Positions 12,029 through 57,990 are shown, counted from the stretch's first letter. The stretch: DNA of 64,000 nt from Candidatus Latescibacterota bacterium (GCA_965215195.1 CBDCDC010000001.1:320001-384000); one strand, 5' to 3'. Made by a program: numbers and translations. Notes: generated from the sequence alone by a model not told the origin.

Positions 12029-12108
12029 AGCGTTCAGTCCGTTCCCGTCGCGCCGACAGCTCGGCGACTTACATCCCCTTCGCCGAACAAACGTTGCTGT
12101 CGTTAGAA

Positions 12109-23507: not shown

Positions 23508-23629
23508 GATCACCTCTTGTAGGGAACAAGTGCTCAAGAACGGAACGACTGGCGACGCTCGTTCCATGGAAAGCGGCGGGCTTGAGGGGCACTCATGTAC
23601 GGCTGCTGGCTTCTCGACAAAGCCTTATT

Positions 23630-25641: not shown

Positions 25642-25760
25642 GATCACCTCTTACAGGAAACAACCTTTGGTAGTTTGATTTTTCTAATTTTTAACGGGTG
25701 TTACGCAATTTACCGGAAAATGCTTCTTTCTGCCACAATATGTTGTATATCCGGCCGGCG

Positions 25761-27365: not shown

Positions 27366-27382
27366 TACTCACCTCCGCCGCA

Positions 27383-27680: not shown

Positions 27681-27696
27681 TCGACAAGTCCCGTAT

Positions 27697-29211: not shown

Positions 29212-29234
29212 TTGCGACGTTGAACGACGGCCGC

Positions 29235-29663: not shown

Positions 29664-29842
29664 GACCTTGCTCCTTTCAGCAAATGAAGTCAATGATCTA
29701 CCAAGCCAAAAAATAACGAATGTTCCGCAGCGTGTCATCGGCGGCGGACTGGCGATACATAGGCGCACCATCCCAAGTCAAGGCGTCGAATACGGCGTCG
29801 TGCGGCCCGCTGCCCCGTTGAAGTCGTCGGCTGGACCAATAT

Positions 29843-31390: not shown

Positions 31391-31490
31391 CTTGACTTTC
31401 AGATTGGACGTACATAGAGCAAGTGAACGGCAGACAGTGATGAGCCTTTAAGCAGGAGCATGATAAGGGCGGCGTAATCTCAGTTAATTA

Positions 31491-34294: not shown

Positions 34295-34629
34295 GAATCC
34301 AATATGCCCCTCAGCATCGGTCAGGGCAATGTCTCGATCCGCTTAGTCCGCGACACTAAGGCTTCGACGACTCGACTGAGCTCGCCGAAGTCCTGAGCTC
34401 AGCCGAAGGGTTTCCGCCGGGTGCGTGGGCAGCCTGCCCGCCAACAGAGGCTGAGGCGATTGTTTATCGCAATTTATTAATTTTTAAGACTATATATTCA
34501 ATAAAATTAATTAACAAATTAATAAATTGATGTTACATCGCCGAACGCCATGCTGGGATACTGAGCCGTGAACGGATCGAGGATCGGCAAGTGCTTTGAG
34601 GACGTTTTCCAGCGACCCACAAGAACTGC

Positions 34630-34698
34630 TTACGAGCCTCTCGCCAGCGCGTCTTTCATCAACTTGTAGTGCAAGCTATCGGCCAGCGCGATCCAACT
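34630..34698 (-). repeat. Duplicated cimA 3' end
   Basis: 34643-34698 is identical (56 bp) to 36545-36600 and continues to its own stop (KDALARGS*). Confidence 0.95.
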
Positions 34699-34782
34699 GT
34701 AGGCGGAGTCGTGGACAGCTTTGTTTTTGCCACGGCCGTCTTCACAAGACAGCGAACAGGATGGCGAATAAGGCGCGTTGAC

Positions 34783-35217
34783 TCATTTTTCCTCCTTTGG
34801 TTTCCCTTCTCTAAGAGGGGTTCGCAAGTTTATCCTTCTAGAAGAATGCTCTTCCAACCAACTAACAAGTTGATCCCGAGAAACATCTCCTGATGCAACT
34901 CCGAAGATGATTTCTTCTTGGATATCTACGATTGCATCAATCTCATATCCATTTCGTTTTAAGAATACTTCCATTGCAGCATGTCCCACCCGTTTATTCC
35001 CATCGATAAAGGGATGATTCTTAATCAAGGAGAAGCATAAGGCCGCTGCCTTTTCTATAACAGTGGGATAGAGAGCTTGTCCAAAGGCCGTCATACGAGG
35101 TTGCTCTACAGCCGATTCCAATCCACTACAATTGAGCACCCCCATAGACCCGCCACTTGTTTCAACAACACGCCTATGAAGTTCCAATACTTCATCTAGA
35201 CTGATATAATACATCAA
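34783..35217 (-). CDS. doc: Doc/Fic family toxin
   Basis: HPFIDGNKR, LESAVEQP. Confidence 0.9.
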   Translation of the reverse strand: MMYYISLDEVLELHRRVVETSGGSMGVLNCSGLESAVEQPRMTAFGQALYPTVIEKAAALCFSLIKNHPFIDGNKRVGHAAMEVFLKRNGYEIDAIVDIQEEIIFGVASGDVSRDQLVSWLEEHSSRRINLRTPLREGKPKEEK

Positions 35218-36311
35218 CTTAGTCTTCGATAAAGTTCTCTATTCTTCTCCAACACATATTCAGCAATCTGCTCAAACTCCTGTCCGCGAAATACACCTCT
35301 ACAAAAAAAATTAATAAGGTCATGTTTTGACTGACAATGCGATCCAGTAGCTCCTGATCTGAAACCCAAATGGTGCCCAAGGACAATGCGTATGATCTCA
35401 GGAACTACTTCCGCAGCTATTTTTATGGTGTGTATTTTGGATTGCTCATCGTTAAGTCCTCTTAATTTTGGCCGACCTGTATGAATTAGGCGATTACGTA
35501 CTTGGTCAACGTCTTGAATCCGATCCTTTTGATCAGGGGTCGGCGACGAATCTATAATCTCAAGTGATTGGAGAAGCGAAAACAATTTATCTTTTGAAGC
35601 TGGGCCACGATCAATCTGGGCATATAGCAAACGTCTATACCTCTCCGCCTGATCCGGTTGGAGAGCCTTTGTTTGCTCGAAGCAATTGAGGACATTGCTT
35701 ATTTCATTTTTAAGTTTCTTACGGATATTATTGCCGACCTTCTGATAAGTCGTTTTATGGTCGTCGAGAATTATGTTGAGTGCCGTGGAATACAAAGCGG
35801 CGCGGGATTGCAAAAGGTTGACCTCCATTGCCTCATTGTATAAGAGCAGAGCAGTGTGCAAATTTTTCGATACCAAGCAATCTCTATGCTGCCAAGCAAG
35901 TGCTGCTGCCTTCAAGGTCTCAACTGCAGCCACTGCATAGTCCCCATGTGAATCGGGTCTATACCTTCTCTTGTATTCTGTAGTTACAACTCTTCTACCG
36001 GTTAGAAAAGTGAGTAAATTGCATAGATCCCATATCCCTCCATCATCGCATTCTTCGTGGATAAGAACGCTCTTTTCTTTGGAATCTTGGTAAGACACAG
36101 TTGCGGTGGCTTGCCAAGTGCCTTCACGTGGTGATGACAGTTTTACCTCTGTCCCATTGCTGACCAAGCTTGCAGGTTTAGCCAGTTGGGCAATTTTGGC
36201 ATCGTAATCATCTGTGAGACAAACCGTAAGGCCACCAATTTCATATTCTGACCATCGGAGGCTAGCGAGTGGTTCGTCTACATATAAATTGAAGAGGTCA
36301 ACTGTTTTCAT
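35214..36311 (-). CDS. Low-GC hypothetical protein with HEPN-like RxxxxH motif and antitoxin-like tail
   Basis: VRNRLIHTG; ends EFEQIAEYVLEKNRELYRRLS, overlapping the doc start. Confidence 0.6.
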   Translation of the reverse strand: MKTVDLFNLYVDEPLASLRWSEYEIGGLTVCLTDDYDAKIAQLAKPASLVSNGTEVKLSSPREGTWQATATVSYQDSKEKSVLIHEECDDGGIWDLCNLLTFLTGRRVVTTEYKRRYRPDSHGDYAVAAVETLKAAALAWQHRDCLVSKNLHTALLLYNEAMEVNLLQSRAALYSTALNIILDDHKTTYQKVGNNIRKKLKNEISNVLNCFEQTKALQPDQAERYRRLLYAQIDRGPASKDKLFSLLQSLEIIDSSPTPDQKDRIQDVDQVRNRLIHTGRPKLRGLNDEQSKIHTIKIAAEVVPEIIRIVLGHHLGFRSGATGSHCQSKHDLINFFCRGVFRGQEFEQIAEYVLEKNRELYRRLS

Positions 36312-36486
36312 TGCTACTTCCTTCCACAGCGACAAAGGTGGACCGAAGTTCCTCGGCGAAATCTTCGCGTAATTCCGCTCCCTCATCAGGGTCGCCCAGC
36401 ATTTCTGAGAGCGCGTGTGCAACAATCTCCTGAACAAGTGCTCTAAACTCATCAACTGTTAAATCGGCAACTTTTGCAGAGGTCAT
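36298..36486 (-). CDS. Small antitoxin-like protein, probably 3' truncated
   Basis: KVADLTVDEFRALV...DPDEGAELREDF. Confidence 0.55.
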   Translation of the reverse strand: MTSAKVADLTVDEFRALVQEIVAHALSEMLGDPDEGAELREDFAEELRSTFVAVEGSSNENS

Positions 36487-36510
36487 TGTCTTGTTCCTTG
36501 ATTTGAGCAC

Positions 36511-38106
36511 TCAGTCCGTCCCAGTCGCGCCGACAGCTAGCTCGGCCAGCGCGTCTTTCATCAACTTGTAGTGCAAGCTATCGGCCAGCGCGATCCAACT
36601 CGCCTCAATCACATTCTCCGAAACCCCCACCGTACCCCATACGTCCTTGCCGTCCGAGGACTCGATCAACACTCGCACCTTGGCCGCGGTCCCGTCCCCG
36701 CTCGACAACACCCGCACCTTGTAGTCCTCCAAATGCACCTGCTCGAGCGCGGGGAACTCCTGCTCCAACGCCTTGCGCAGCGCTTGGTCGAGCGCGTTGA
36801 CCGGGCCATCGCCGCCAGCGACCGTATGGTACTCGGCATCGCCGATGGCGACCTTGACAATGGCCTCGGCTGCTTCGAGGTGCGCCCCGGTCCGGCGGTT
36901 GATGGTGCGGAAGTTGATCAGGGTGAATAAGTCCTCGTACGTGCCTTGAACTCGGCGCGCCAGCAGCTCAAACGACCCCTCGGCTGCCTCGAACTGATAA
37001 CCCTCGTGCTCTAGCTGCTTGACCCGTTCCAAGACCCGCCCCACCAGCGGATCCTTTTTTTCTATATCGGGTAAAAATCGCCGCAGCTTGCTGACGATCG
37101 TGGCTCCGCCCGCTTGGTCCGAGACCAAGAAGCGCCGCTCGTTGCCCGTGGCTTGGGGATCGATGTGTTCGTAGCAGCGCGGGTTCTTGGTCATGGCGTC
37201 GATGTGTACGCCCCCCTTGTGGGCAAATGCGCTCTCGCCGACATAAGGCTGGCGGTGGTCGTGGTACACGTTGGCGATCTCGCTCAGGAAGCGGGAGAAG
37301 TCCATCAGGTCTTTGAGCCGCTCCGCCCCGAGGGTCTGGTAGCCCATCTTCAGCTCCAAGTTGGGCAAGATGGCGCACAGGTTGGCGTTGCCGCAGCGCT
37401 CGCCATAGCCGTTGAAGGTCCCTTGCACTTGCACTGCGCCCCGCTCCACGGCCACGAGGGTATTGGCCACGCCCACGCCGGCATCGTTGTGCGCGTGAAT
37501 GCCAAAGGGAACCCGGATCCGCTCGGCGACCTGTTCGACGATCTGGCCCATCTCGCTGGTCAGGGTGCCGCCATTGGTATCGCAGAGCACCAAAATCCGC
37601 GCTCCACCGCGCTCGGCCGCCAACAGGGTCTCGACCGCGTAGCCGGCGTCGGCCTTATAGCCGTCGAAAAAGTGCTCGGCGTCGTAGATCACCTCGCGAC
37701 CATGGCCGACGAGATAGGCGACCGAATCCTCGATTAGCTGCAAATTTTCTTCTAGGGTCGTCTTGAGCGCCTCCACGACGTGCAGAGTCCAACTCTTGCC
37801 AAAGATGCAAACGCTGCTGGTCTCGGCCCGCAGCAGCGTGTTCAGGGTTGCGTCCTCTGCCGGGGCCACGCCGGCCCGGCGCGTACTGCCAAAGGCCACC
37901 ACTCGCGCCTTCAGGCCCAGCTTCTTCACCTCTTGGAAAAAGGCCAGATCCTTGGGATTGGTCGGGTTGGGCCAGCCCCCTTCGATGTAATCGACTCCGA
38001 GCGCATCGAGCCGCCGAGCGATCAGCAGCTTGTCCTCTAGCGAGTAGGAAATGCCCTCGGCTTGGGCGCCGTCCCGCAGGGTGGAGTCATAGACTTCGAT
38101 GCGCAT
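36511..38106 (-). CDS. cimA: Citramalate synthase
   Basis: DSTLRDGAQAEG, YIEGGWP, YDAEHFFDG, HAHND, AHKGGVH, LeuA-type regulatory domain. Confidence 0.93.
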   Translation of the reverse strand: MRIEVYDSTLRDGAQAEGISYSLEDKLLIARRLDALGVDYIEGGWPNPTNPKDLAFFQEVKKLGLKARVVAFGSTRRAGVAPAEDATLNTLLRAETSSVCIFGKSWTLHVVEALKTTLEENLQLIEDSVAYLVGHGREVIYDAEHFFDGYKADAGYAVETLLAAERGGARILVLCDTNGGTLTSEMGQIVEQVAERIRVPFGIHAHNDAGVGVANTLVAVERGAVQVQGTFNGYGERCGNANLCAILPNLELKMGYQTLGAERLKDLMDFSRFLSEIANVYHDHRQPYVGESAFAHKGGVHIDAMTKNPRCYEHIDPQATGNERRFLVSDQAGGATIVSKLRRFLPDIEKKDPLVGRVLERVKQLEHEGYQFEAAEGSFELLARRVQGTYEDLFTLINFRTINRRTGAHLEAAEAIVKVAIGDAEYHTVAGGDGPVNALDQALRKALEQEFPALEQVHLEDYKVRVLSSGDGTAAKVRVLIESSDGKDVWGTVGVSENVIEASWIALADSLHYKLMKDALAELAVGATGTD

Positions 38107-38127
38107 GGTGTCGCTCCCCTCCATGGA

Positions 38128-39186
38128 CTAGGCCTCGGCCACAGCCTGGGCTACCAGATCGCCTACTTCGGCCGTGGAATATCCCATTCTGCCCGCTCCC
38201 ATGTCGTCGAGCTTGCCCAGCGTCGAGACGATAGCGCCCTCCAAAATGCGGGCACCCTCGCGCTCGCCGAGCGTGTCGAGCATGAGCTGACAGGCGCCGA
38301 TGGCGGCTAGCGGGTTGATGATATTCTGGCCGCTGTACTTGGGGGCCGAGCCGCCGATCGGCTCGAACATCGACACGCCTTCGGGGTTGATGTTGCCCCC
38401 GGCCGCAATGCCCATCCCGCCTTGGATCATTGCGCCCAAATCCGTGATGATGTCCCCGAACATGTTGTCGGTGACCACCACGTCGAACCACTCGGGATTT
38501 TTGACCATCCACATGCAGATGGCATCGACGTGGGCGTAGTCGCGCTTGATGGCTGGATAGTCGGCCGCGCCGATTTCGTGGAACGCCCGCTCCCACAGGT
38601 CGAAGGCATAGGTCAGCACATTGGTCTTGCCGCACAGGGTCAAGGTGTTGTCCTTGTTGCGCCGCTGGGTGTGCTCAAAGGCGTAGCGCAGACAGCGCTC
38701 GACGCCTTTGCGGGTGTTGATCGATTCCTGCACCGCGATTTCGTCGGGCGTACCCTTCTTGAGGAAGCCTCCGGCACCGGCGTACAGCCCCTCGGTGTTT
38801 TCGCGCACCACCACGAAGTCGATTTCCTCGGGGCCCTTGTCCTTAATCGGCGTCGGCACATTGGGGTAGAGCTTGACCGGGCGGAGGTTGATGTACTGGT
38901 CCAATTCAAAGCGCAATCTCAGTAGAATGCCCTTTTCGAGGATACCCGGCTTCACGTCGGGGTGGCCGATGGCCCCTAGGTAAATGGCATCGAACTGCCG
39001 AAACTCGTCGGCCGCCGAGTCGGGCAAGACCTCTCCGGTGCGCAAGTAGCGGTCACCGCCAAAGTCGAACTCAACGGTCTCGTATTTGAATCCCTGTTTG
39101 GTGGCCACCGCGTCGAGCGCTTTTAAGCCCTCGACCACCACTTCAGGCCCTGTTCCGTCTCCGGGTAGTACGGCGATTTTGTGCAA
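38128..39186 (-). CDS. leuB: 3-isopropylmalate dehydrogenase
   Basis: [27 protein letters not shown]; AGGAGG then TTG at 39186. Confidence 0.93.
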
Positions 39187-39190
39187 GTAT

Positions 39191-39451
39191 TTACCTCCTT
39201 CTACTCTCGTTCCAATTGGCAAAATAGCGCGCTCCTGTGACCGCGATTCGAACAGCGGCGTATAGCAACATCGCGCCGACTGTGAGGATCAACACCACGA
39301 ACACCAACCCGGTCGCGATTAGAATCCCGCAGATAACAATTGCCGCGACAAATGCCGCGACAAATGCCAAAAACAGCAAAGCGGTCGTCGGTATCAGCAC
39401 CCGGGCTAATGGGTTGGTAACTTTCCGTCCATTTACTTTGATGTGTCCCAT
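39191..39451 (-). CDS. Small membrane protein
   Basis: 86 aa, long hydrophobic stretch, AAGGAG RBS, inserted between leuD and leuB. Confidence 0.55.
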   Translation of the reverse strand: MGHIKVNGRKVTNPLARVLIPTTALLFLAFVAAFVAAIVICGILIATGLVFVVLILTVGAMLLYAAVRIAVTGARYFANWNESRRR

Positions 39452-39480
39452 CTCGATCTCCTTCAGAACTCTGCCAGCCA

Positions 39481-39582
39481 GCGGCCAAAAGCTGGCCCAG
39501 CGAATCCCAGCTCCCCTTGAGAAACTGCTCGCGCCGGCTGGCCGCTATCTCAGCGGACACCTCGCCGCCGGCGTAGCGGACC
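39481..39582 (-). repeat. Duplicated leuD 3' segment
   Basis: 39481-39533 is identical (53 bp) to 39761-39813; the adjoining part is a diverged homolog (VRYAGGEVSAEIAAS vs VRWASREVAAEIADG). Confidence 0.93.
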
Positions 39583-39699
39583 TAACGGAGTGGTTGGATC
39601 GGCGGATATATCGGCACTAAACGCACCAAGCGTTTAATTTCCCGTACGTCGTCAGACAATTCCAGATCACCGTTTTCGCGGTGCATCATGGCTTGGTCA

Positions 39700-40299
39700 T
39701 CAAGCGACAAAAGCGCGGGTGTACGGCAAGCGGGACACAGTCTCGTCGATCAGATCGTCGGCGGCCAAAAGCTGGCCCAGCGAATCCCAGCTCCCCTTGA
39801 GAAACTGCTCGCGGGGGCCATCGGCAATTTCGGCTGCAACCTCGCGGCTGGCCCAGCGCACGCTCCGCGCTTCGAGGTCGATAGCCACTTCCTGCGCCGG
39901 GTCGCTCTCGACCGCAGCCATCAAAGTCTGCATGTCCTCGGCCGCCAGCCGCACACAAGGCAGCCCCATGGCGATGCAGTTGCCAAAGAAAATCTCGGCA
40001 AAGGACTCGGCGACAAAGCCCTTGATCCCCCAGCGCATCAGGGCCTGCGGCGCGTGTTCGCGCGAGGACCCGCAGCCGAAATTGGCGTTGGCCAACAGAA
40101 TCGACGCCCCTTGGAAGTGCGCTTGGTCAAAGGGATGGTCGCTGCCGGCGCGGTCGTCCTCAAAGGCATGGGCACCGAGGTTATCAAAGGTCACCGTGCG
40201 CAAAAAGCGGGCCGGGATGATGCGGTCGGTGTCGATATCTGCGCCGCGCACCACCACGCCGCGGCCGATTATCGTCTTAATCACACTCGAATTTTCCAT
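39700..40299 (-). CDS. leuD: 3-isopropylmalate dehydratase small subunit
   Basis: DIDTDRIIPARFL, NFGCGSSREHA, SFAEIFFGN. Confidence 0.96.
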   Translation of the reverse strand: MENSSVIKTIIGRGVVVRGADIDTDRIIPARFLRTVTFDNLGAHAFEDDRAGSDHPFDQAHFQGASILLANANFGCGSSREHAPQALMRWGIKGFVAESFAEIFFGNCIAMGLPCVRLAAEDMQTLMAAVESDPAQEVAIDLEARSVRWASREVAAEIADGPREQFLKGSWDSLGQLLAADDLIDETVSRLPYTRAFVA

Positions 40300-40341
40300 G
40301 GTGTCTCCTTAACGATTGCGTCAGCAAGCCCACGCAAATAT

Positions 40342-40569
40342 CTAACGAACCCTGAGGAAGTCGTCGACGTCGATTCGGGCTTCTCGAAGAATGGCGCGAA
40401 GCGTTCCCTCCGCCATATCTCTAGTGTGACGAGGCACAGTAACTTTCCGACCAGTCTGTGCATGACGCCAAACTTCGTGACTGCCCGGCCCCGGACGGTC
40501 GAACCCATAACCAAAACGTCGCAGGCGCTGAGCAACTTCTCGATACTTGAACCCGGAGAGCCGTCCCAC
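40342..40569 (-). CDS. hicA: HicA family toxin
   Basis: LRRFGY...GSHEVW...VTVPRH...GTLRAILR. Confidence 0.9.
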   Translation of the reverse strand: MGRLSGFKYREVAQRLRRFGYGFDRPGPGSHEVWRHAQTGRKVTVPRHTRDMAEGTLRAILREARIDVDDFLRVR

Positions 40570-40820
40570 TACGGCACGCTTACAGGGACCAGCAGATCAA
40601 TTTCGGCGTTACCCTCCGGGAGAGTCGCCAATGCGCGAGGAAGCGGGTCCCCGTGTTCAATACATGACTCTGCAATTTTGCGTACGAGACCTTGTGCAAT
40701 CTCGGCAGCCTCGGTGACGCTACGTCCTTCTGCAACCAAGCCCGAGACATCGGGACTCGTGGCGAGAAAGCCACCTTCATCCAATGGCTCAATATGTAGT
40801 CGGATCGTCGATTCGTTCAT
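40569..40820 (-). CDS. hicB: HicB family antitoxin (short form)
   Basis: IEPLDEGGFLATSPDVSGLVAEGRS. Confidence 0.88.
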   Translation of the reverse strand: MNESTIRLHIEPLDEGGFLATSPDVSGLVAEGRSVTEAAEIAQGLVRKIAESCIEHGDPLPRALATLPEGNAEIDLLVPVSVP

Positions 40821-40957
40821 CAAATTTGTCTCCTTTTGCGTCACGCGGCATACAACAGTTTCTTCGTCTGCTCAATGTCTCGAGCGATATAGCGACTCTC
40901 TGTCATCAGTACCTCCGTTCCAATCGGTCTGCTTGGGCGAGTTCCACAAACGGCCCC

Positions 40958-42355
<1,398 letters not shown>

Positions 42356-42375
42356 CTCCGCTCTCCTCTACACGG

Positions 42376-43995
<1,620 letters not shown>

Positions 43996-43999
43996 GATG

Positions 44000-44140
44000 T
44001 GCTCTTTCCTAAACTGGCCGGATGAGGTGGTACCAGCGGCAGACGGTCCCCTCCAGCCGTGTAGAGACCACCCACCGACGTAAGGTCGGGATCGGAACTC
44101 AACTCGCTAAGTAGGGGTTCCATCGCGCTCACCTCCTTTC
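44000..44140 (-). promoter_or_regulatory. Putative structured leuA leader with upstream ORF
   Basis: Strong AGGAGGTGA RBS and ATG out of frame with leuA; mutually exclusive helices. Confidence 0.45.
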
Positions 44141-44148
44141 GGGTGGTG

Positions 44149-45141
44149 CTATTTGTCGTCCAGCCAGCTCATCATCGCGCGCAGCCGGGTGCCGACGGTC
44201 TCGATCAGGTGCGCGGAATCGCGGCGCTTGATCGCATTGTACACCGGGCGGCCCACTTGGTTTTCGGCCAGCCATTCCCGCGCAAAGTGGCCGTTTTGCA
44301 CGTCGGCGAGAATTTGCTTCATTTCCGCCCGCGCCTGCTCGGTTATCACCCGGCGGCCACGCGTCAAGTCGCCGAACTCGGCAGTATCCGAAATCGACGA
44401 GCGCATGTTGGCGATGCCCCCTTCGTAGATCAGATCGACGATCAGCTTAACTTCGTGCAGGCACTCGAAATAGGCGACCTCGGGCTGGTACCCGGCCTCG
44501 ACCAGCGTGTCGAACCCAGCGCGGATCAGCTCGGTCAAACCGCCGCACAGCACCACTTGCTCGCCGAACAAGTCGGTCTCGGTCTCCTCGCGGAAGGTCG
44601 TCTCAATAACCCCGGCCCGGCCGCAGCCAATCCCCTTGGCATAGGCCAAGCCGACCTCGTGCGCTCGGCCAGTGGCATCTTGGTAAACGGCCAACAGGCC
44701 CGGCACGCCACCCCCCTGCTGGTACACGCGGCGCACCAAATGCCCCGGCCCCTTGGGCGCGACCATGAACACATCGACATCGGCCGGCGGCACCACCTGC
44801 CCAAAGTGGATGTTAAACCCGTGGGCAAAGGCGAGGGCATTGCCCGCTTTGAGATGGGGGCGGATATCGGCTTCGTACACGGCCTTCTGGACCTCGTCGT
44901 TGATCAGGATCACCGCGATATCGCCTCGCTTGCTGGCCTCGGCCACGTCGGCTACCTCCAGCCCGGCGGCCTCGGCCTCAGCGCGTCGCTGGCTACCCGA
45001 GCGCAGGCCCACCACCACCTTGACGCCGCTTTCCGCAAGGTTGAGCGAATGCGCGTGACCCTGGCTGCCATAGCCGATGACGGCCACGGTCTTGTCCGAG
45101 AGCAGCTCGAGATTGGCGTCGTTGTCGTAGTACATCTGCAT
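44149..45141 (-). CDS. ilvC: Ketol-acid reductoisomerase
   Basis: [40 protein letters not shown]. Confidence 0.97.
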
Positions 45142-45262
45142 GGAAATTCTCCTTCACTGAGGGCGTTGAGATTGTTTGATAGACATAGTTCGCTGACAGC
45201 CGGCCAGTTGCAGCGGCTTCGTCCGTTAATTGGGCTGTCAAACGTGGAACGAGGAGCGAAGC

Positions 45263-45376
45263 CTACTTGATCGGCCGGCCAATAATAAGTAGGTCGAGGA
45301 GGAGAAGTCGGAGGCGCACCCACACTGGCGTCGGGCGGAAAATACGCGGGGACTGGGACGGCGCACTCATGGGCAT
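45263..45376 (-). promoter_or_regulatory. Branched-chain amino acid leader peptide (attenuator)
   Basis: 37 aa MPMSAPSQSPRIFRPTPVWVRLRLLLLDLLIIGRPIK* between the promoter and ilvC. Confidence 0.8.
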
Positions 45377-45423
45377 TAAACCTAAGTAATCCAAGTAGTT
45401 AGCTTTCAATTTAGAAAGGTTTC

Positions 45424-45452
45424 AATATACGGTGCACCAAGGGGAATGTCAA
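45424..45452 (-). promoter_or_regulatory. Sigma70-type promoter of the ilvC-leu operon
   Basis: TTGACA-17 bp-TATATT. Confidence 0.8.
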
Positions 45453-45522
45453 GCGATGTAGCGGAATCGCCCATCTTGCCCTAATTTACCGCACGCATTG
45501 AATCCCAACCGCGAAATTCCCT

Positions 45523-46509
45523 GTGGCCGACACCTTTGAAATCCAGCTCGTCGCCGACGACACCGCTTGGGATGCCTTCGTCCGCCAAGCCGTCGGCGGT
45601 ACGGTATTTTCCACCAGCGCGTGGCTCCGCTGTGCTGCGGCCGCCACCGGCGGCCAAGTCCATCGCCTCGGTTGCTATCGCAATGGCTGCCTCGTCGCTG
45701 GCCTCAGTGGCCTGGCCCGCCGGCGCATGGGCCTCTACCGCCTCGAAACCCCGGAACTGACGCCCCACACCGGCCTGCTTCTAGCGCCGGTCGCCAGCAA
45801 AAAACCAGCCACGGTCGAAGCCGCCCAACACCGCGCTTGTACGCACCTGCTTGACTATCTCGCCAAACATTACCACCGCGTCTTCCTAGTCCACGCGCCA
45901 GCCATCGCCGACGTGCGCCCCTTCACTTGGCAGGGCTGGGACGCGCACCTGCGCTACACCTATCGGTTGACTCTCGGCGCTAGCGACACCCTCTGGGAAG
46001 GGCTGGCAAACCTCAGACGCCGCGACATCCGCAAAGCCGAAAAACTGGGCTATCAGCTTCAAGCCACGGATGACACCGCGCTCTTTCGGCGGCAATACGA
46101 AGCCACCTACACCAACCAAACCAGCGCCCCGCCGGTCGCCTCAGCTATGGCCGAGCGCTTTGTCGCTTTAGTCCTAGAGGCCGGCCTAGCCAAGGCGTAC
46201 AAAATCGCCGCCGCAGACAAAGAGACCGCGGGCCTCGTCGTCTTTGTCGAGGGCCGCGACACCGCTTATTTCTGGACCGGGGGTTCGGATCCCGCCTTCA
46301 ACCACACGGGCGCGAATTCGCTTTTGTTCTGGCAGTACTGGGCGACCTGTTCCCTCCAGCGTTTCGACTTCGTCGGTGCCAACATTCCATCCATCGCCTT
46401 TTTTAAGCGCGGCTTTGGCTGCGACCTCGTGCCGTACTATGCGGTTGTCGGCTACAAGAGCCGCTGGGTCAAACGCGCTTTTGGCGTGCGCCGAGCGCTG
46501 CGCGGCTGA
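45523..46509 (+). CDS. FemAB-like GNAT family protein
   Basis: WDAFV...TVFS, YTYRL, RRDIRKAEK, FDFVGAN...FFKRGFG. Confidence 0.8.
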   Translation: MADTFEIQLVADDTAWDAFVRQAVGGTVFSTSAWLRCAAAATGGQVHRLGCYRNGCLVAGLSGLARRRMGLYRLETPELTPHTGLLLAPVASKKPATVEAAQHRACTHLLDYLAKHYHRVFLVHAPAIADVRPFTWQGWDAHLRYTYRLTLGASDTLWEGLANLRRRDIRKAEKLGYQLQATDDTALFRRQYEATYTNQTSAPPVASAMAERFVALVLEAGLAKAYKIAAADKETAGLVVFVEGRDTAYFWTGGSDPAFNHTGANSLLFWQYWATCSLQRFDFVGANIPSIAFFKRGFGCDLVPYYAVVGYKSRWVKRAFGVRRALRG

Positions 46510-46515
46510 CGGCTC

Positions 46516-48486
46516 TCAATAGTGCAATTGCGTCACCGACTTAGAAATCAACGCAATGGCCACGGCCGACATGCCCACCAAACCCATCCCACACGCATAC
46601 CCAGCCAACAACACCGGCGCGTATTGCCGCCACTGCTGCGCCCCAAAGCGCGGCTCCAGCCAATAGCGGGCCAGCAGGGCCCCGGCCATTTCCGGGATTA
46701 GCAAATGCGGCAGACCCGATAGGCCGCGCACAAACCCGTACACCAGCGAAATCGGCCACCCCAACCACGACATAACCCCAAACGCCCCCCCGGCCAGCAC
46801 AAAACTTCCCGCGATCCACCAGCCCTTAATCGCTTGGTCAAACAGCGTTTCCCCGCCCAACGTCGCCGAGTACCACAAACACTGGCGCAGCGCGATGAGA
46901 TGCCAATACGTCTGCGCGTATTGGAAGGTCGGCGAGGGAATGGGCTCCATCTGCCAGACCAGCGACCAAAACACAAAGCCACAGACCAAGCTCAGCGGCA
47001 ACAGCAACAGCTCGGCCTTGATAATCGACGAGAAGCGCGTCCCGGTCAGCTCAACCTCGCGGAAAAGCTGGGCGCGCCGGCCGTGGTCGGAGTATGGAAT
47101 GGGCGCGAACCATATATCAATGCCTTTGTAGCCGCTTAGGATAAAAGCGCCTTCGCGCAGCAGCGGGAAGCTGACCAACTGCCCCGTCAGCCCGGCCATG
47201 CGCGCATTGACGTACGAAATCACCGGCGTCACTACGAAGCCAAAGAGCAGCAAAAAGACCAGCGGAAACTCGTCGTCGTCTAAGAGCAACACGCAGAGCC
47301 AGACCATGGCCAGCGTCGACAGCGCGTACCCGACAATCGCTATCCACAGCGGAAAGTCGCCCCGCCCGGCCGGCTTATCCTGCAACGGGCGGTGCCCGCC
47401 CTGACGGCGCGCGGCCCGCACCGACAGCACGGCGTGGACCAAGCCAATCGCGCCCACGGCCGCGCCCGCGCCAATGTACACGCTCATCCACACGTCGATG
47501 TCGTTGGCGAAGTTCGTCAAGATCGCGTCCATGCCCGGCCGCCAGTGCGGCAGCGCACCAGCGTAATAGAGAATTGGGCTACCCAAGGCGTGGACCATGG
47601 CCGCGGCAAACGTGCCGACGACGATCCAAAACGGCAGCACCATCCCCAACAGCACCAAGCCCAAGTCCGTACCAATGCCCAAGGGCGCGGCCGGCAAAAT
47701 GCCCTCCGTAGTGCGCGTCAGGTCGATCCAAGGAATGGGCAGCAGGGCGATGGGATCGCTGGCGATCAACCCGGTCAGCGCCGGCAAGCCCACGTACACC
47801 GCGCCGAACAGCAAACCAATCCCCATGCCCACTGAGAAAACCCGCCAGCGCCAGCTATCCCGCCCTTCGTCTCCTTCGGCGAGGGCCATCGCCCCCTGCG
47901 CGGCCACCGGTGCCAACGGGAAGGGCAAGCGCTCCACATCGGACGTGACCCGAAAGAGGATGTAGCCGAGCGTGAACCACTCAACCCGCGACAAAACCTG
48001 CGAGGCGACCAGCACGACCACTGGCGGAATCCACGCCCGGTGCAAAAAGCTGCGCCCGACCAGCGCGTCTGAACCAATTGGCGGCGCAACCCATTCCGGG
48101 ATGTGCTCGGCAATGCCAAAGCCGGCCGCGGCCTGCGACTGGGCGAGGTACTGGTTCCACACTAGTTGCCCAAACGGCCCGCCGGCCAGCATGGTGCCGC
48201 CGATGACGCCGGCCAAGCCGCCGGCAATGTAGTAGATCAGGTAAATCTCCTGGCGCGTCAGCGAAGAAAAGGAACGCCGCGCCAGTTCGGAAAACAGGAT
48301 GATGGTCACCCACTCGGCGGCCGCGCCGAGCGATGCGCCGGCGATCAGGCCCATGTAAATGGCCCCGGGCATCATGATGAAGCCGACGAAAAACGCCCCG
48401 GCCACAGTGCGCACAGTAAAGCCCTCGCGAAAGCGCGTCGGGCGCTGCATCAAGTCGCGGTAGCTAGTTAGTTCGTCGGTTCTCAC
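46516..48486 (-). CDS. OPT/YSL-like putative peptide transporter
   Basis: Polytopic; AAEWVTIILF, DVERLPFP, SGYKGIDIWFAP; GTG start overlaps the upstream stop. Confidence 0.7.
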   Translation of the reverse strand: MRTDELTSYRDLMQRPTRFREGFTVRTVAGAFFVGFIMMPGAIYMGLIAGASLGAAAEWVTIILFSELARRSFSSLTRQEIYLIYYIAGGLAGVIGGTMLAGGPFGQLVWNQYLAQSQAAAGFGIAEHIPEWVAPPIGSDALVGRSFLHRAWIPPVVVLVASQVLSRVEWFTLGYILFRVTSDVERLPFPLAPVAAQGAMALAEGDEGRDSWRWRVFSVGMGIGLLFGAVYVGLPALTGLIASDPIALLPIPWIDLTRTTEGILPAAPLGIGTDLGLVLLGMVLPFWIVVGTFAAAMVHALGSPILYYAGALPHWRPGMDAILTNFANDIDVWMSVYIGAGAAVGAIGLVHAVLSVRAARRQGGHRPLQDKPAGRGDFPLWIAIVGYALSTLAMVWLCVLLLDDDEFPLVFLLLFGFVVTPVISYVNARMAGLTGQLVSFPLLREGAFILSGYKGIDIWFAPIPYSDHGRRAQLFREVELTGTRFSSIIKAELLLLPLSLVCGFVFWSLVWQMEPIPSPTFQYAQTYWHLIALRQCLWYSATLGGETLFDQAIKGWWIAGSFVLAGGAFGVMSWLGWPISLVYGFVRGLSGLPHLLIPEMAGALLARYWLEPRFGAQQWRQYAPVLLAGYACGMGLVGMSAVAIALISKSVTQLHY

Positions 48487-50387
48487 GGCCGGTATCCACC
48501 CCCCATCTCGCCCTGCAACAGCGCGACCGCCGCCCACAACAGGCGCAGCGCGACCTCGCCGCAAATCATCCCCAAGAAAAACGGCATGACCCGGCGGTAG
48601 GTCTGGGCCCCGCCGTAGCGCACGGCCAGCCACTTGCACAGCCAACCGCACAACACCGACCCCCACACCAGCCAGCCAAAACCCGTGCCAAACACAAAGC
48701 CCATGGGATGCAAGGGCCAGCGCAGAAAGTGCTGGCGCATCAATGCCAAGAAATAGGTAAAGCCCGCCCCGGCCGCGTGAAATCCCAAGCGCACCCAGTC
48801 CGTGCCCCCATCTACTGTGCCCGCGTCTTTGAACAAGTAGTTGTAGTAGCGGCCAATGCGCGCCTCAGACCGCGCACCGCCCTGCTCCTGCAAGGCGAAC
48901 AGCCCGTATTCGTAGATCGTTTCCAGCGCAAACACATAGCCGGCCCCCAGCCCGACAGCCAATCCCAAAGCCATCCCCCAAATCAAGCGGCGCGGCGACA
49001 CCCCGTGCATCTCGGCCAGTTTAAGCCCCTCAAATTGCAGGGCCGGCCAGATCCCAATCATCGTAAAGCCAAACACCGCCAAAAAGCCAAAGCCCATGTA
49101 GGTCTCGTCGGCAAAACGCCCGGCCCCGGTTCCCAAGGCCACGAAGAACAGGTAGCCCACAATTTGCGGCATCCCCACAATGGGCAGGCCTCCGTCGATC
49201 CGCAGCCGCGCAAACGTCAATGCCAACAGCAACACCAGCAACAGCGCCGCAATGCCCATCAGCGGCGGCACCCCCAAAGCCGTAGTCCACGCCCACAGCA
49301 ACGCCAGCCCGGCCGCCAGCCCCCACGTCGCCCGGCTGCGCCAAGCGATGGCCGCGGCCAGTGCCCGCCGCGCCGACCACAGGCTGAACAGCCCCAAAAA
49401 CAGCAAGCCGCCGCGCGCCTGCGTCATAAAAAAGGGGAAGTGACTGGGCCAATCTAACCACGGCGATCCGTGCCCGGGGATGAAATCGCCGCGATACTCC
49501 AGACGCCCGAGAAAGTGGGCCACCAACAATTGTGCGCGGGTGAGCAAATAGAAAAACCACGTGCTGAACGACACTTCCACGGGCGCGAGAAAGGCCGCAC
49601 CCACCAGCAAGGGGACAAACTCGAAGTGAAACGGCGACTCAAAGGGCGCCATGGCTTTCCACGGATCGTCGAGGAGGAAGTGAGCCATGTCCAAACGCGA
49701 GACGATCTCGGGCACGGACGGCATGTAGTGGTGCCACCCATTGATCCCCAACAGCACACCCGGCACCAACGCGCCCCACCAAAACAGCCGCTGGCCAAAC
49801 AGGTCTCCGGCAATGAGGGCGCGAGGGACTTCGAGCAATGGGAACCCCAGCCGCTCGGTCTCCAGCCAGCGCTGCCGCAAAAGCCACACCAAGCAGAAGC
49901 AGGTGAGAAAAAACGTGCCAAAAAACGCGCTCCACATCGCCAGCGGCCACAGCCACGCCCCCCAAGGCACGGCCGCGCCGCCTTCAAACGCTCCGATAGC
50001 CGGTGCCTCATTCGGCCCGCCCGGGACCAGCCAGTCCGGGACGACTTTCAGAAAGCGGTAATAGGGGCCGGTCGGCTGGGCAAAACCCCCGTAGAAACCC
50101 GTCACCAAGGCCGGCAGAAACCGGTGCATCAGGCCGGAAGCGGTCGCCGACACCCCGATGACCAGCGCAGCGTAGAGCACCGCACGATCCCCCGGGCCGA
50201 GCAAGCGACGCAACAAGGTCGCGGCTGCCAAGGCCCCTAAGGGCACGGCGAGAAAGACCTGCGCCCCCGTCTCACTTCCGGCCCCGGCCAAATGCGGGCC
50301 GTTGTACAGCAACTCAACGCGCTGGAGCAACCACCCGCTCGCGACCGTGATGCCGACGATGAGCAATGCCAAGCGCAGGGTCACCAT
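48483..50387 (-). CDS. DUF6785/DUF6784-like polytopic membrane protein
   Basis: VPWGAW..P, QRWLETERLGFPL, WPLHPMG, KW..VRYGG, PFFLG. Confidence 0.75.
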   Translation of the reverse strand: MVTLRLALLIVGITVASGWLLQRVELLYNGPHLAGAGSETGAQVFLAVPLGALAAATLLRRLLGPGDRAVLYAALVIGVSATASGLMHRFLPALVTGFYGGFAQPTGPYYRFLKVVPDWLVPGGPNEAPAIGAFEGGAAVPWGAWLWPLAMWSAFFGTFFLTCFCLVWLLRQRWLETERLGFPLLEVPRALIAGDLFGQRLFWWGALVPGVLLGINGWHHYMPSVPEIVSRLDMAHFLLDDPWKAMAPFESPFHFEFVPLLVGAAFLAPVEVSFSTWFFYLLTRAQLLVAHFLGRLEYRGDFIPGHGSPWLDWPSHFPFFMTQARGGLLFLGLFSLWSARRALAAAIAWRSRATWGLAAGLALLWAWTTALGVPPLMGIAALLLVLLLALTFARLRIDGGLPIVGMPQIVGYLFFVALGTGAGRFADETYMGFGFLAVFGFTMIGIWPALQFEGLKLAEMHGVSPRRLIWGMALGLAVGLGAGYVFALETIYEYGLFALQEQGGARSEARIGRYYNYLFKDAGTVDGGTDWVRLGFHAAGAGFTYFLALMRQHFLRWPLHPMGFVFGTGFGWLVWGSVLCGWLCKWLAVRYGGAQTYRRVMPFFLGMICGEVALRLLWAAVALLQGEMGGGYRP

Positions 50388-50458
50388 CTCAGAAACCTTT
50401 CTAACATTCCTTGCGTTGTCCCCTAGCCGCCCAACCTTTGAGGCTTTAGACCCCCCCC

Positions 50459-50582
50459 CTAACTACACGACACCAATAACTTGTCGTTGATGGGCGATGA
50501 GTCCGGGATCGAGGGCGTCCCGCCCTCGACGAGGGCAAGATGCCCTCGATCCGAGGGTAAGGCCCTACTGTCGTGTACTTAG
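50459..50582. mobile_element. MITE/REP-like element, copy B
   Basis: TIRs ctaactacacgacacca / tactgtcgtgtacttag; 52-bp palindromic core at 50501-50552. Confidence 0.7.
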
Positions 50583-50977
50583 GACCACCCCAATAAAAGC
50601 CCTATATTGACTTAGGGGCTTGGTATTCTACTATATAGGTTAGACTAAAGAAACCGAGTATGAATATTATAAAAGCGGCCTCATACCGGTCCAAATTAAG
50701 GATATTCCTCTTCTGGAACGAAGAGAGCGAAACGCACTATGAATCGAAACCTCGAAGCACTGATTGAAGAACACGCCAAGGTCATGGCCGAGCGAAGGGC
50801 CCCGGCCAAGTTACAGAGGATAAGAACGCGCCGGGCGTCAAGGCTGTCGTCGAACAGCTCAACAGGCGGTTCCGGGACTTTCAGGCAAAAGAGCACGTCG
50901 ATATGGAACGTATCCTTGGCGTAGGCTGCGATGGTGACGCGATTTAGGATCTCAAAGTTATTTTTAGAGGAGGACTC

Positions 50978-51571
50978 ATAGGTAATGATAGCAGCGATCC
51001 AGTACTGCCTGAGCCAAAGACGGAAGCTGCCAAGCAAGCACGGAGAAGTTTTGAGCACCGAGTTGAAGAACAGCTAAAGCAAGAGGAGCAGATTGCCTTC
51101 AACATTCTAGTGTGGGGCATGTCGCCCGACAGAGACGCTCCCATTGCCAGAAAACGAAAAGATATCGGTAATCGGCTTATTGATGACGGCCACAATGCCA
51201 TGTTTAGCGAGGATCTTCCAAACCTAGGCAACGACCGCAACCGTTCAGAAAAGAGCAAAGAGTTTGCTCAAGCGAAGGCTGCTGACCTAGTTATTATTCT
51301 TCTTGAGGATTCACCCGGTGCACTCGCTGAAGCATGTGACTTCTGTGACCATCCAGACTTGGCTACAAAAATCTACGTTATGGCTCCAGACTCGTACCAA
51401 GAGAGTTATCCGGGCCAAGGAACTCTAGAAGAATTAGATGAAGGGTACGGTGGTGTGTACTGGTACCAGCAAGGTGATGTCGAAGCCTGCCATCTTCTGA
51501 CACAAGCTAGCAAGCGTGTAAAAGCACGGCGGAGCATGGCTTATCGCCACCAAATAAGGGAGTCCAACTGA
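50978..51571 (+). CDS. Nucleoside deoxyribosyltransferase-like protein resembling retron St85/Ec86 effectors
   Basis: ILVWG...FSEDL...ADLVIILLEDSPGALAE; the frame is open back to an ATA codon preceded by GAGGAGG. Confidence 0.55.
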   Translation: MGNDSSDPVLPEPKTEAAKQARRSFEHRVEEQLKQEEQIAFNILVWGMSPDRDAPIARKRKDIGNRLIDDGHNAMFSEDLPNLGNDRNRSEKSKEFAQAKAADLVIILLEDSPGALAEACDFCDHPDLATKIYVMAPDSYQESYPGQGTLEELDEGYGGVYWYQQGDVEACHLLTQASKRVKARRSMAYRHQIRESN

Positions 51572-52638
51572 TGCCCAGCACAAGAAAGATGGATTGGGAA
51601 GCAGCCGAGGCGATGCAAGATAAGAAAACTATGTTCCTCTTGTATGCAGTATCGGAAGGTCTCTGCCTGCATATCAACGACTTCTCCGAGCATTTCGAGG
51701 GATTGGTTGCAGAAGAGGTGCAAACCCTTGTTACGGCTGGCTTCCTAGAGGAGTCCGCTGGACTCCTCAGCGTTACGGCAAAAGGACGTTTAGTATTGGG
51801 CGATCTTGCAAACGCTACAGTAAGCAAAGAAGAGGACCAAAAAAGAAAGAACAACATCGAATTTTCTTCAATTCATATCACTAAATCTTTGCGGGAAGCA
51901 ATTAGAGGTGCTGCCGAGTTGAGTGAACGGAGTGAAGAAGATTTTATTCATCAAACACTTGCTTTTATGGTTGGGCGCATAATTCGAGAGAACTGCGAAG
52001 TTGTCAATTTACGTGGTGAGACTGTTGACGAAGATCTTGAACGTTTGAAGTATTGGTGGTCTATGCAAAAGGAAGGAAAGAAGGTTCGTCTTCGTATGGG
52101 AGGTAACTCAGATCACTTTGAGATTAACTCCAAAGCAATGTCCAAAATGGAAGAGTGGTTAAAAGACAAAGAGGACATAGATGTCCCTGCCTATGACCCA
52201 TTTGAGTTGCTTTGGAAGAATATCGAGCACGAAGAAGAGTGGAAGAGACTGGAATGGAAAAAAGAATTAGAGTTACAAGACAAAAAAATTGCACCTGATG
52301 AGTATGAGAAGTTTTCGACTGAGGAAGGGCGAAAATTCAGAGAGGAAAGAGGCTATCTGCAATCAGAAGTTCCTTTTGAGTTTGTTCCCGGAATTCAAGC
52401 AAGTGCTCTTATTCCCGAAATCCCGTCTGAGTCCGAACAGCTTTTGCAGCTAGCGGAAACCATTGAGACAGGCACTTTTTCTTTACGCGATGCTCTTCTC
52501 TATTTTCTTATTCTGAGAGAGGGAAAAAGAACAATAATAAAATGGGTGGGGAAGAAACGCGCTAAGAAAATTTTAGGTATAGTTAAAACCCGTATCAGGA
52601 AAGCTCTTGACGACAAGATAGACATGAAGGAAAAATGA
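51571..52638 (+). CDS. Low-GC hypothetical protein, possible N-terminal winged helix
   Basis: 355 aa, coupled to the upstream gene (TGATG); LVTAGFLEE..LSVTAKGR. Confidence 0.55.
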   Translation: MPSTRKMDWEAAEAMQDKKTMFLLYAVSEGLCLHINDFSEHFEGLVAEEVQTLVTAGFLEESAGLLSVTAKGRLVLGDLANATVSKEEDQKRKNNIEFSSIHITKSLREAIRGAAELSERSEEDFIHQTLAFMVGRIIRENCEVVNLRGETVDEDLERLKYWWSMQKEGKKVRLRMGGNSDHFEINSKAMSKMEEWLKDKEDIDVPAYDPFELLWKNIEHEEEWKRLEWKKELELQDKKIAPDEYEKFSTEEGRKFREERGYLQSEVPFEFVPGIQASALIPEIPSESEQLLQLAETIETGTFSLRDALLYFLILREGKRTIIKWVGKKRAKKILGIVKTRIRKALDDKIDMKEK

Positions 52639-52852
52639 CCCGTGAAAACGATACCAAGACGATACCGAACTGACCTCCAAACGATCAGCCGCGCCTAAGA
52701 ACAGGACACAGGCCCACGCCTTGTGTGCCTTGGTCTGCCTAGCTTATCTTGTGCGCCACCAATAAAATGGCCCTTGTCCGCTCTTACCCGCCTTGCTCGC
52801 CTTTTCCCCGTCCTTGCCGTACGACATAGCCGCGATCTTGGCCGTTGTGGGT

Positions 52853-52972
52853 CTATTCTAGCGCGGCCCCGGCCAAATGCGGGCCGTTGTACAGCAACTC
52901 AACGCGCTGGAGCAACCACCCGCTCGCGACCGTGATGCCGACGATGAGCAATGCCAAGCGCAGCGCGGCCAT
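52853..52972 (-). pseudogene. Truncated original 5' end of the DUF6785-like gene
   Basis: 52864-52963 is identical (100 bp) to 50279-50378; ATG sits just after the FtsX stop; ends after 39 aa. Confidence 0.92.
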
Positions 52973-57348: not shown

Positions 57349-57990
57349 AGGCCCGCGGCCCCGGAGGGATTCCCTATTTTTCGGTTGTAATAACACAAAG
57401 CAAACTCTTGCGTTTGAACGAATTAACCTTCCGGTTGTCTGTGCAATTTGGCAAGCCGCTGGGCATTCTCGTCGAGCATAATAGGTTGTCGGCGGTAGAT
57501 TCGATGGGCTAATGTCGTTGCTAGGGTGTGCGTAGAGAAAGCGGGAGTATGAAGGAAGGGGTTGCGCCCTTGAGCCGACTTCTAATGACGCGGTGCATTC
57601 GGTCCCGCCGCTTTGACGACGAGCGGGAAAATGAAAAAAAAATCCAGTATCAGCAAGACCCCGAGGCGGCATCCGGTTGGCCTGCTTCGAGACGCCGCTG
57701 ATTTAGATGGTGCGCTTAAAAGCCTGCGTCCGTGCAAACGGGTGGCGCAGCTTGTCTTGCTCGCGGGAAGGACTACCGTTTGCTCAACACAACCCAAGCA
57801 TGCTCCAGCTCAACTGGAGGCGAGTTTTCAGAAGGCTTCTAAGTGTTTATACTTGCGAAGGAGCGGCGACTAAGAAAACGCCTTGACACACCGGATGGCG
57901 GATTGCGATTACGGGCGTAAGGAATGCGAGCCATCCGCTTCAACACAAAGAGGAAGACGCCTAGCGGGCCAACGCCCCAAGGCAAGACCG

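Follow-up and report, generated by a model that had tools for sequence, protein, structure and literature searches.

The window analysed here, a stretch of 64,000 nucleotides (nt) from the genome of a Candidatus Latescibacterota bacterium (G000, contig C1, 320001-384000; an assembly of 6.13 Mb in 2 contigs with 60% guanine plus cytosine, GC), carries three insertions, each bracketed by two exact copies of the end of a host gene. All host genes concerned lie on the minus strand. Two of the three duplications sit in one amino-acid operon, whose order is ilvC, leuA, leuC, a block of two open reading frames (ORFs) resembling HicB/HicA, leuD, a small membrane ORF, leuB and a cimA-like synthase. The third lies further along, at a DUF6785/DUF6784 gene beside a 1565-amino-acid (aa) FtsX/M28 gene, so that all three fall within 18 kb.

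Exact direct repeats of 56, 53 and 100 bp had been predicted at these gene ends from the sequence of the window, and a repeat search over 33000-54500 agreed with an exact k-mer scan of the whole genome in placing all three at the predicted coordinates; the search found these three direct-repeat families and no more in that interval. The perfect cores were taken from the k-mer scan, which accepted isolated exact pairs of at least 38 nt spaced 150-20000 nt apart. Chance is a negligible source of exact repeats of at least 53 nt within 5 kb in 64 kb (about 3e8 position pairs x 4^-53). Domains were called with Pfam over 49 window ORFs, further profile checks were made with NCBIfam and PADLOC, and cargo names are family matches only. 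By Pfam, a full-length host gene is kept at all three sites (cimA, leuD, DUF6785), and the spare repeat copies run on into other sequence, as the original prediction had it. The inserts measure 1846, 227 and 2485 nt (inserts 1, 2 and 3), with interior GC of 0.449, 0.581 and 0.476 against 0.61-0.65 in the flanks. Each locus was compared with related genomes: 10 at the cimA tail and at leuD, 16 at the DUF6785 start, and 30 at three loci outside the window (L040, L044 and L045). Strain variation was read from unitigs of the public runs X1, X7, X8 and X10, which are short and break at repeats.

The features of insert 1, between cimA and argJ, are as follows.

36511..38124, minus strand: intact cimA-like gene (citramalate/isopropylmalate synthase family), 537 aa; Pfam HMGL-like, HCS_D2 and LeuA_dimer
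36545..36600, minus strand: repeat copy H(R), 56 nt within the intact cimA 3' end; repeat search and k-mer scan
36506..36544, minus strand: R-tail, the final 11 cimA codons, stop and a 5-nt spacer; genus-typical cimA end
34699..36505, minus strand: insert 1 cargo, GC 0.449
36298-36489, minus strand: small antitoxin-like ORF in the cargo
35214-36311, minus strand: 365-aa protein of unknown family in the cargo; 83 homologues, every one unnamed
34783-35217, minus strand: Doc toxin in the cargo; Pfam Fic/DOC, TIGR01550, E 8e-17
34699-34786, minus strand: truncated 5' stub of a lipoprotein gene, about 85 nt, in the cargo; corresponds to the beginning of a lipoprotein-like ORF that is intact in G041
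34643..34698, minus strand: repeat copy H(L), spare cimA segment, 56 nt, 100% identical to 36545-36600
34607..34642, minus strand: L-tail, an alternative short cimA end of 3 codons and a stop; the actual cimA end in G018
12029..12062, minus strand: second R-tail copy, slightly diverged, directly before argJ
10835-12028, minus strand: argJ

Read in the direction of the genes, the cimA body is followed by the repeat, the R-tail, the antitoxin-like ORF, the 365-aa protein, Doc, the lipoprotein stub, the second repeat and the L-tail, and then by an AT-rich stretch and a gene of the AAA_22 family. Orthologues of cimA are 76-93% identical across the genus, and the 56-nt repeat is 87-96% identical to the single copy found in 15 relatives. 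Of 10 relatives, 8 have the R-tail as their native end of cimA, and in 5 of these (G008, G001, G011, G009 and G010) the alignment has argJ starting directly after it, 5 nt past the stop. The variable region between cimA and argJ occupies about 24.4 kb in G000 and is closed by the second R-tail copy. The closest species, G018 (cimA 93% identical), has cimA, repeat and L-tail directly joined; the island downstream is there too in a reduced form, and argJ is again preceded by an R-tail. An L-like short cimA tail occurs in G005 as well; in our reading, the two short tails look like one old allele rather than two independent hits. Doc cassettes 80-82% identical to that of the window follow cimA, repeat and R-tail in G036, G041 and G007. 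Both repeat-tail junctions of insert 1 are thus already present in relatives, and its sole novel junction is 34698/34699, where the truncated lipoprotein-gene start is joined to the repeat. The layout of G018 is exactly what recombination between both 56-bp repeats would leave, which makes reversal by this route plausible; the reduced unitig depth over inserts 1 and 3 is a weak hint of empty sites. An ancestral duplication of repeat plus R-tail, later split by the island, was considered and dropped; the carriers of the Doc cassette (G036, G041, G007) have no second 56-nt repeat. Duplications of the R-tail have varying breakpoints among G013, G012, G002 and G004, at tail positions 1, 4, 5 and 11.

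Insert 2 lies at the 3' end of leuD.

39700..40299, minus strand: intact leuD, 199 aa; Pfam Aconitase_C; holds the repeat copy 39761-39813
39582..39760, minus strand: insert 2, an A-like leuD tail and stop (39700-39760), then 118 nt with a 35-codon mini-ORF
39481..39581, minus strand: spare leuD fragment, 48 nt about 65% identical, then the exact 53-nt core (39481-39533)
39191..39451, minus strand: small membrane-protein-like ORF between leuD and leuB; present in 6 of 10 relatives, absent in 4 of 10
40316..40957, minus strand: HicB/HicA-like two-ORF block between leuC and leuD; Pfam HicB_lk_antitox weak, E 0.004, the HicA likeness being our own reading

Here the repeat (39481-39581 and 39761-39861) spans 101 nt at 83% identity around the exact core of 53 nt (39481-39533 = 39761-39813), and the spare fragment continues into a B-type tail that lacks about 45 nt. 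In all 10 relatives the leuD end is single, with a B-type tail in 7 and an A-type tail in 3, and the duplication is found in none; the sole novel junction is 39581/39582. In X1, an independent public run about 98% identical in this part, a contig leads from 39476 to 39755 by way of 35 letters that make up an unbroken B-type tail; the run therefore contains a conspecific strain without the leuD duplication. On the other side of leuD, no flanking repeats were found around the HicAB-like block between leuC and leuD. The two genes are adjacent in G004, and other DNA fills the gap in G018 and in G001, where it is about 3 kb long and includes a diverged second copy of the leuC 3' end.

Insert 3 differs in that the duplicated segment is a 5' gene end.

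48483..50387, minus strand: intact DUF6785/DUF6784 gene, 634 aa; Pfam; its first 109 nt are repeat copy L
50388..52863, both strands: insert 3, GC 0.476
50696-51058, minus strand: ORF of insert 3
51110-51571, plus strand: ORF of insert 3
51571-52638, plus strand: ORF of insert 3
about 50457-50582: high-copy repeat resembling a miniature inverted-repeat transposable element (MITE), in insert 3
52864..52972, minus strand: spare DUF6785 5' fragment with the start-codon type of empty alleles, 2 nt past the stop of the FtsX/M28 gene
52975-57672, minus strand: 1565-aa FtsX/M28 gene

The two copies (50279-50387 and 52864-52972) are 96% identical over 109 nt, with an exact core of 100 nt (50279-50378 = 52864-52963). 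Seven of 16 relatives are empty (G018, G001, G010, G041, G012, G005, G008): the stop of the big gene is followed by 2 nt and then by DUF6785 with the start type of the spare copy. Elsewhere the locus holds a short leader of the other type only (G004, G036), 0.9-2.8 kb of DNA (G039, G037, G002, G011, G009), or the other-type leader with cargo-like pieces, the end of the big gene lying outside the fetched stretch (G038, G040). All 9 non-empty relatives carry the leader and start-codon type of the intact window copy, whose start codon, next two codons and leader are thus of the type in relatives' occupied alleles. The cargo itself occurs in G009 at 87% identity over 1768 nt, and a 153-aa ORF in it has sub-threshold likeness to retron/NDT effectors. 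None of the 16 relatives examined has the 5' duplication. At this locus G000 therefore has the first 109 nt of the "empty" allele in tandem with the "occupied" allele, with the one novel junction at 52863/52864. The X1 strain has a different insert 3 junction, from 52618 to 52932.

The MITE-like repeat of insert 3 is about 126 nt long, with inverted ends around a GC-rich hairpin. Its family gives 187 blastn matches in the genome, 30 of at least 100 nt, and in all four runs it shows very high unitig depth with many different loose ends. As a common agent of the three insertions it was rejected, being absent from inserts 1 and 2.

A constraint can be read at the far end of the cimA-argJ region. 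In 15 of 16 genomes an ORF ending in ..VGATGTD/E stops 8 nt before the argJ ATG; the exception is G005, in which the ORF stop overlaps that ATG. Which ORF terminates there varies: the 5 empty genomes have cimA itself; G018, G004, G013, G041 and G037 have a conserved mini-ORF of about 26-28 codons, and G007 a shorter one; in G002 and G012 a truncated antitoxin continues in frame into the second R-tail, to which it is fused; G000 has a short ORF with a TTG start, and G036 the Doc gene itself. The mini-ORF (12029-12120 in the window; in the same place in L003, L009, L012, L036 and L038) carries a Shine-Dalgarno-like motif of its own, continues into the duplicated tail of cimA, and accompanies unrelated cargo in the five genomes with the conserved form. 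It looks like a translational coupler kept at the distal end of the variable region. We infer that the duplicated cimA tail is retained because argJ stays translationally coupled; gene-end duplications may survive inside operons because such a tail would keep argJ coupled.

The window is one instance of a wider pattern. A genome-wide check for such repeats, which the original prediction had proposed, gave 25 isolated exact pairs, and 16 were examined, the 3 of the window and 13 others. At least eight of the pairs outside the window bracket cargo at the 3' end of a gene, the last two of the following less clearly than the rest.

L040: herA; the cargo is a methylase pair
L042: Eco57I-like methylase block
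L044: thiamine pyrophosphokinase gene; the cargo is three unknown ORFs
L045: ABC ATPase gene; the cargo is a NYN protein
L049: amidohydrolase gene; the cargo is a 116-aa ORF
L051: HsdR-like gene; the cargo is a Fic protein
L041: AAA_22 gene
L048: 301-aa ORF

The GC of the cargo lies below that of both flanks in 7 of these 8, the exception being L041, whose interior equals its flanks. Among the other pairs, L046 proved to be merely two MITE copies and was dropped, L050 has its repeat inside a gene, and L039, L043 and L047 were not classed as cargo cases. Over 30 relatives, L045 is empty in 16 and occupied in 1, and L044 is empty in 13 and occupied in 5; L040 is occupied in at least 10 and looks empty by coordinates in at least 5, of which one was confirmed empty at sequence level. 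At L044 the working gene takes the insert-borne tail and the native tail stands behind the spare copy, which is the layout seen at cimA. In 5 of 14 pairs the repeat goes on as diverged homology, on one side only (insert 2, 0.65; L042, 0.77; L043, 0.94; L048, 0.81; L049, 0.94). Both the empty sites and the alternative cargo looked for in sister genomes exist: at the window junctions they occur in 15-16 sister species, so that relatives never showing an empty allele, which would have counted against the insertions, is contradicted by G018, by the 7 of 16 at DUF6785 and by the single leuD end in 10 of 10. The same architecture is present in the closed sister-species genomes G013, G004, G037 and G002.

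No enzyme that could account for these insertions was found beside them. The proposed survey of recombinase and competence genes returned 4 tyrosine recombinases (PF00589), all carried by contig C2 and at a distance from the inserts, 0 serine recombinases (PF00239) and 0 Ku homologues in the genome; ComEC is present, and also in 10 of 14 control genomes, hence unremarkable. Pfam, NCBIfam and PADLOC place no recombinase or transposase within the inserts of the window, and none of the genome-wide inserts holds an integrase. The nearest mobility gene is one DDE transposase ORF (31532-32590), outside all inserts and 2 kb from insert 1. The claim that no integrase, terminal inverted repeat or attC lies nearby was likewise borne out. 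Rfam matches and tRNAs are absent from the window, and the best terminal inverted repeats of 14 inserts (6-13 nt) are within the range of shuffled controls. For attC, there is no Rfam match in the window, no common end motif and no integrase nearby, a dedicated attC model not having been run. The inserts are also unrelated to each other as predicted, the only sequence shared in an all-against-all blastn of the 14 being one MITE fragment in insert 3 and L043. The expected mixture of toxin-antitoxin, defence-like and unknown cargo was recognised in Doc, the 365-aa protein and the weakly retron/NDT-like ORF.

Set against the known classes of mobile elements, the anatomy departs from several. There is no cognate integrase, as a tyrosine-integrase island or a cis-mobilizable element (CIME) would have; no common core attachment (att) site with fixed breakpoints, R-tail breakpoints being variable and the inserts unrelated in sequence; neither the attC sites nor the intI/attI platform of an integron; and no terminal inverted repeats with a short fixed target duplication as left by a transposon or MITE, the duplications being 38-107 nt and of variable length. 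What each case does show is one junction homologous to an allele that already exists and one illegitimate junction, the latter found in no relative, as expected from a single crossover or from homology-facilitated illegitimate recombination.

Beside insert 1 lies a 532-aa AAA_22/AAA_16 (STAND-like) protein (32696-34294, minus strand). Its family counts 13 paralogues dispersed over the genome, at 58-82% identity, and genomes of the genus give as many as about 17 matches each; 3 copies adjoin isolated gene-end repeat copies. The gene was considered as the agent of insertion and set aside, with no PADLOC or NCBIfam match and no link to the mechanism found.

In kind, the structure is ordinary: it is the already described "insertion with long target duplication", of which the window is a good example. 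That description is reportedly owed to Nobusato et al. 2000 (Gene 259:99). Furuta, Abe & Kobayashi 2010 (NAR 38:2428, PMC2853133) describe restriction-modification blocks of less than 20 kb without mobility genes, flanked by repeats of more than 30 bp that are single at the empty sites of relatives and often lie across a start or stop codon, the target gene being kept whole. They find the pattern in several phyla, leave the mechanism open and hypothesise a virus-like cycle via the repeats (PMC2853133). Measured against this account, the window agrees in repeat length (56, 53 and 100 bp), in size below 20 kb, in the absence of a mobility gene and in lower GC, and also in the single repeat at empty sites (G018; 7 of 16; 10 relatives and X1), the empty allele at inserts 1 and 3 being one of two allele classes. 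It differs in having three cases in 18 kb, two of them in one operon, and two "inserts" that are alternative alleles. The pairing of restriction and modification genes, which served that study as a search criterion and not as a mechanism, is absent from the window, where the cargo is toxin-antitoxin, defence-like or unknown, unlike the blocks treated in PMC2853133; methylase cases occur elsewhere in the genome, at L040 and L042. A recurrent, integrase-free insertion that spares host genes, as the original prediction had it, therefore stands, and a special route of this lineage does not, the pattern being published for several phyla. The notion of a free cassette with its own ends also has to be given up for two of the three cases, in which the "insert" is what relatives have as the other allele at that locus, here standing in tandem with the resident allele. 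Older scars had further been suspected in GT2 and deacetylase genes. The former are tandem paralogues, similar over the whole gene (73-88%) and spaced about 2194 apart, and no deacetylase domain occurs among the 49 window ORFs scanned. The GT2 array (25977-31396) consists of three glycosyltransferase paralogues and a heavily deleted fourth copy (27343-27685), and a 178-aa ORF made of 33/54-nt repeats (29339-29645) lies between two of the paralogues.

Other described systems are close in one respect or another. On homology-facilitated illegitimate recombination, PMC5361080 cites de Vries & Wackernagel 2002, Prudhomme et al. 2002 and Meier & Wackernagel 2003. For Escherichia coli, PMC3240628 reports that 56 of 60 integrants of a plasmid with a lacZ-end fragment had a 109-950 bp end duplication through a single crossover. 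The likeness lies in one homologous exchange in a short segment and one illegitimate joint, the gene end being duplicated on both sides; the experiments used plasmids and longer homology, whereas here the homology is 38-107 nt and the presumed donor is natural DNA. For orphan arrays at type VI secretion effector-immunity and Rhs loci, the authors of PMC5361080 propose homology-facilitated illegitimate recombination. These arrays share the anchoring on a conserved segment, the old gene end displaced downstream as a stub, and growth by repeated events; as described there, they replace the variable 3' part of one toxin family, and here the anchors are unrelated housekeeping genes, with cargo that has no relation to them. 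Integrase islands, CIMEs and integron cassettes likewise have direct repeats at gene ends, an element-borne end that leaves the gene intact and hot-spot variation of cargo, but the present sites have no nearby integrase, no common core site and no attC-like structure, and every site has its own repeat from its own gene.

We consider it probable that these insertions with long target duplication were made by the host's own recombination, with no dedicated recombinase. DNA would arrive from the same locus of another strain or species, already bearing the gene end beside its cargo. It would pair with the resident gene and recombine in the longest perfectly identical stretch, 38-107 nt, and the other end would be closed by one illegitimate joint, either through formation of a circle before a single (Campbell-type) crossover or through integration of a linear piece by homology-facilitated illegitimate recombination; the two are indistinguishable on this anatomy. 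This would leave the resident gene end and the incoming one as a tandem that encloses the cargo. Persistence would require one intact full gene and, in operons, an ORF that still terminates just before the next gene. Addictive cargo (toxin-antitoxin, restriction-modification) would resist loss by recombination between the repeats, and gene conversion would keep the copies identical. Perfect cores of 38-107 nt are to be expected if recombination requires unbroken identity. In relatives, the two halves of every tandem occur separately, which supports an origin from tandem alleles. That insert 1 opens with the genus-typical cimA tail, and that the intact DUF6785 gene has a start codon and leader of its own, would not result from blind duplication of a target.

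Several observations weigh against such an origin, and some of them favour another. Repeats end sharply on both sides at inserts 1 and 3, L045 and L047, as they would after a staggered break. Copies within a genome share lineage-specific variants (G004 and G008 at herA, G013 and G004 at the R-tail), and by our reading each of the two copies in G002 departs from G000 at 10 sites, with 3 differences between the copies themselves. A donor-derived copy alone fails to predict this, and gene conversion or a fresh duplication of recipient sequence is therefore needed; by the same token, exact repeats need not be recent. No cargo donor closer than 80-87% identity was found. At leuD, the tail behind the spare copy differs from that of the X1 strain, so that one simple event on an X1-like genome fails to reproduce the structure. 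The long duplication could instead have arisen de novo, from a double-strand break with long staggered ends at the gene end, for which a restriction enzyme or toxin that came in, or else a nuclease of the host, may have been responsible; foreign DNA would have been joined to it while fill-in copied 40-110 nt of the recipient onto both sides. The exactness of the repeats and their shared variants and sharp boundaries would follow, L045 and L040 do show a clean flank-repeat-flank order in empty relatives, and double-strand breakage is put forward as a common property by Furuta et al. (PMC2853133). Yet no Ku homologue is encoded, and the usual bacterial end-joining route is therefore missing; it is left unexplained why insert 1 opens with the alternative tail of cimA and why intact DUF6785 has the start and leader of occupied alleles, and the 5 of 14 repeats that extend as diverged homology on one side do not fit. 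We regard this origin as unlikely.

Less credit still is given to a tyrosine recombinase acting in trans on integrase-less, CIME-like derivatives, with the repeated gene ends as att sites. Direct repeats of 40-110 nt at gene 3' ends are typical of integrase-made attL/attR, and the cimA end is swapped at about the same position in G018 and G005. This likeness is raised as a caveat by Furuta et al. (PMC2853133) too. But the few recombinases of the genome are all remote from the inserts, at least 11 distinct repeat sequences have nothing in common, the R-tail breakpoints vary, some units are just 200-280 nt, and the two short cimA tails, as read above, look like one old allele. An artefact, in which the assembler stitched alleles of co-occurring strains in tandem, is the least credible origin, although a mixed community is the source of the genome, unitig depth summed over inserts 1 and 3 stays below that of the flanks in X7, X8 and X10 (a weak measure), and X1 contains a strain with the other leuD allele and another insert 3 junction. 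The assembly has just 2 contigs for 6.13 Mb, and closed genomes of sister species repeat the architecture. Unitigs in X7 and X1, from two studies, span insert 1 from repeat to repeat (34670-36574), holding 29-30 nt of each repeat, under the bridging rule of 31; those of X7, X8 and X10 extend 30 nt into the DUF6785 repeat, at 52864-52893.

It is conceivable, if rather doubtful, that the repeat-flanked cassettes are self-propagating, recombinase-free elements, along the lines of the virus-like cycle hypothesised by Furuta et al. A circle of cargo plus one repeat would be released by recombination between the repeats and, through a single RecA crossover, would insert again at that gene end in other cells. 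Such elements would have evolved "operon-safe" ends, for example the mini-ORF of about 26 codons that reads into the cimA tail and stops 8 nt before argJ, and if so, essential operons would be colonised without polar effects.

Other repeated and nuclease-like genes are spread over the window. Four genes combine AAA-ATPase_like and PDDEXK_9 domains, at 16998-18575, 21714-23567, 23854-25647 (minus strand) and 57883-59544 (plus strand), and two of the four form a tandem pair, 90-92% identical. Two genes encode Uma2-family nucleases (7944-8606 and 15545-16159). All of these lie within variable regions. A 63-nt GC-rich repeat, with the look of a repetitive extragenic palindrome, occurs at 34384-34446, upstream of the AAA_22 gene, and at 23630-23692, downstream of a PDDEXK_9 gene; the copies are 90% identical, and it has 21 blastn matches in the genome.

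For annotation, gene-end fragments of this kind should be taken as scars, neither as assembly errors nor as new genes. With about 30 sister genomes and strain variants, the genus is a good natural data set for the mechanism of long target duplication. For the biology of these bacteria, it follows that toxin-antitoxin and defence genes can settle in essential biosynthetic operons without a mobility enzyme. The host may tolerate them in that the copied gene end leaves the interrupted gene complete and, at cimA and argJ, would keep a translated ORF running up to the next gene.

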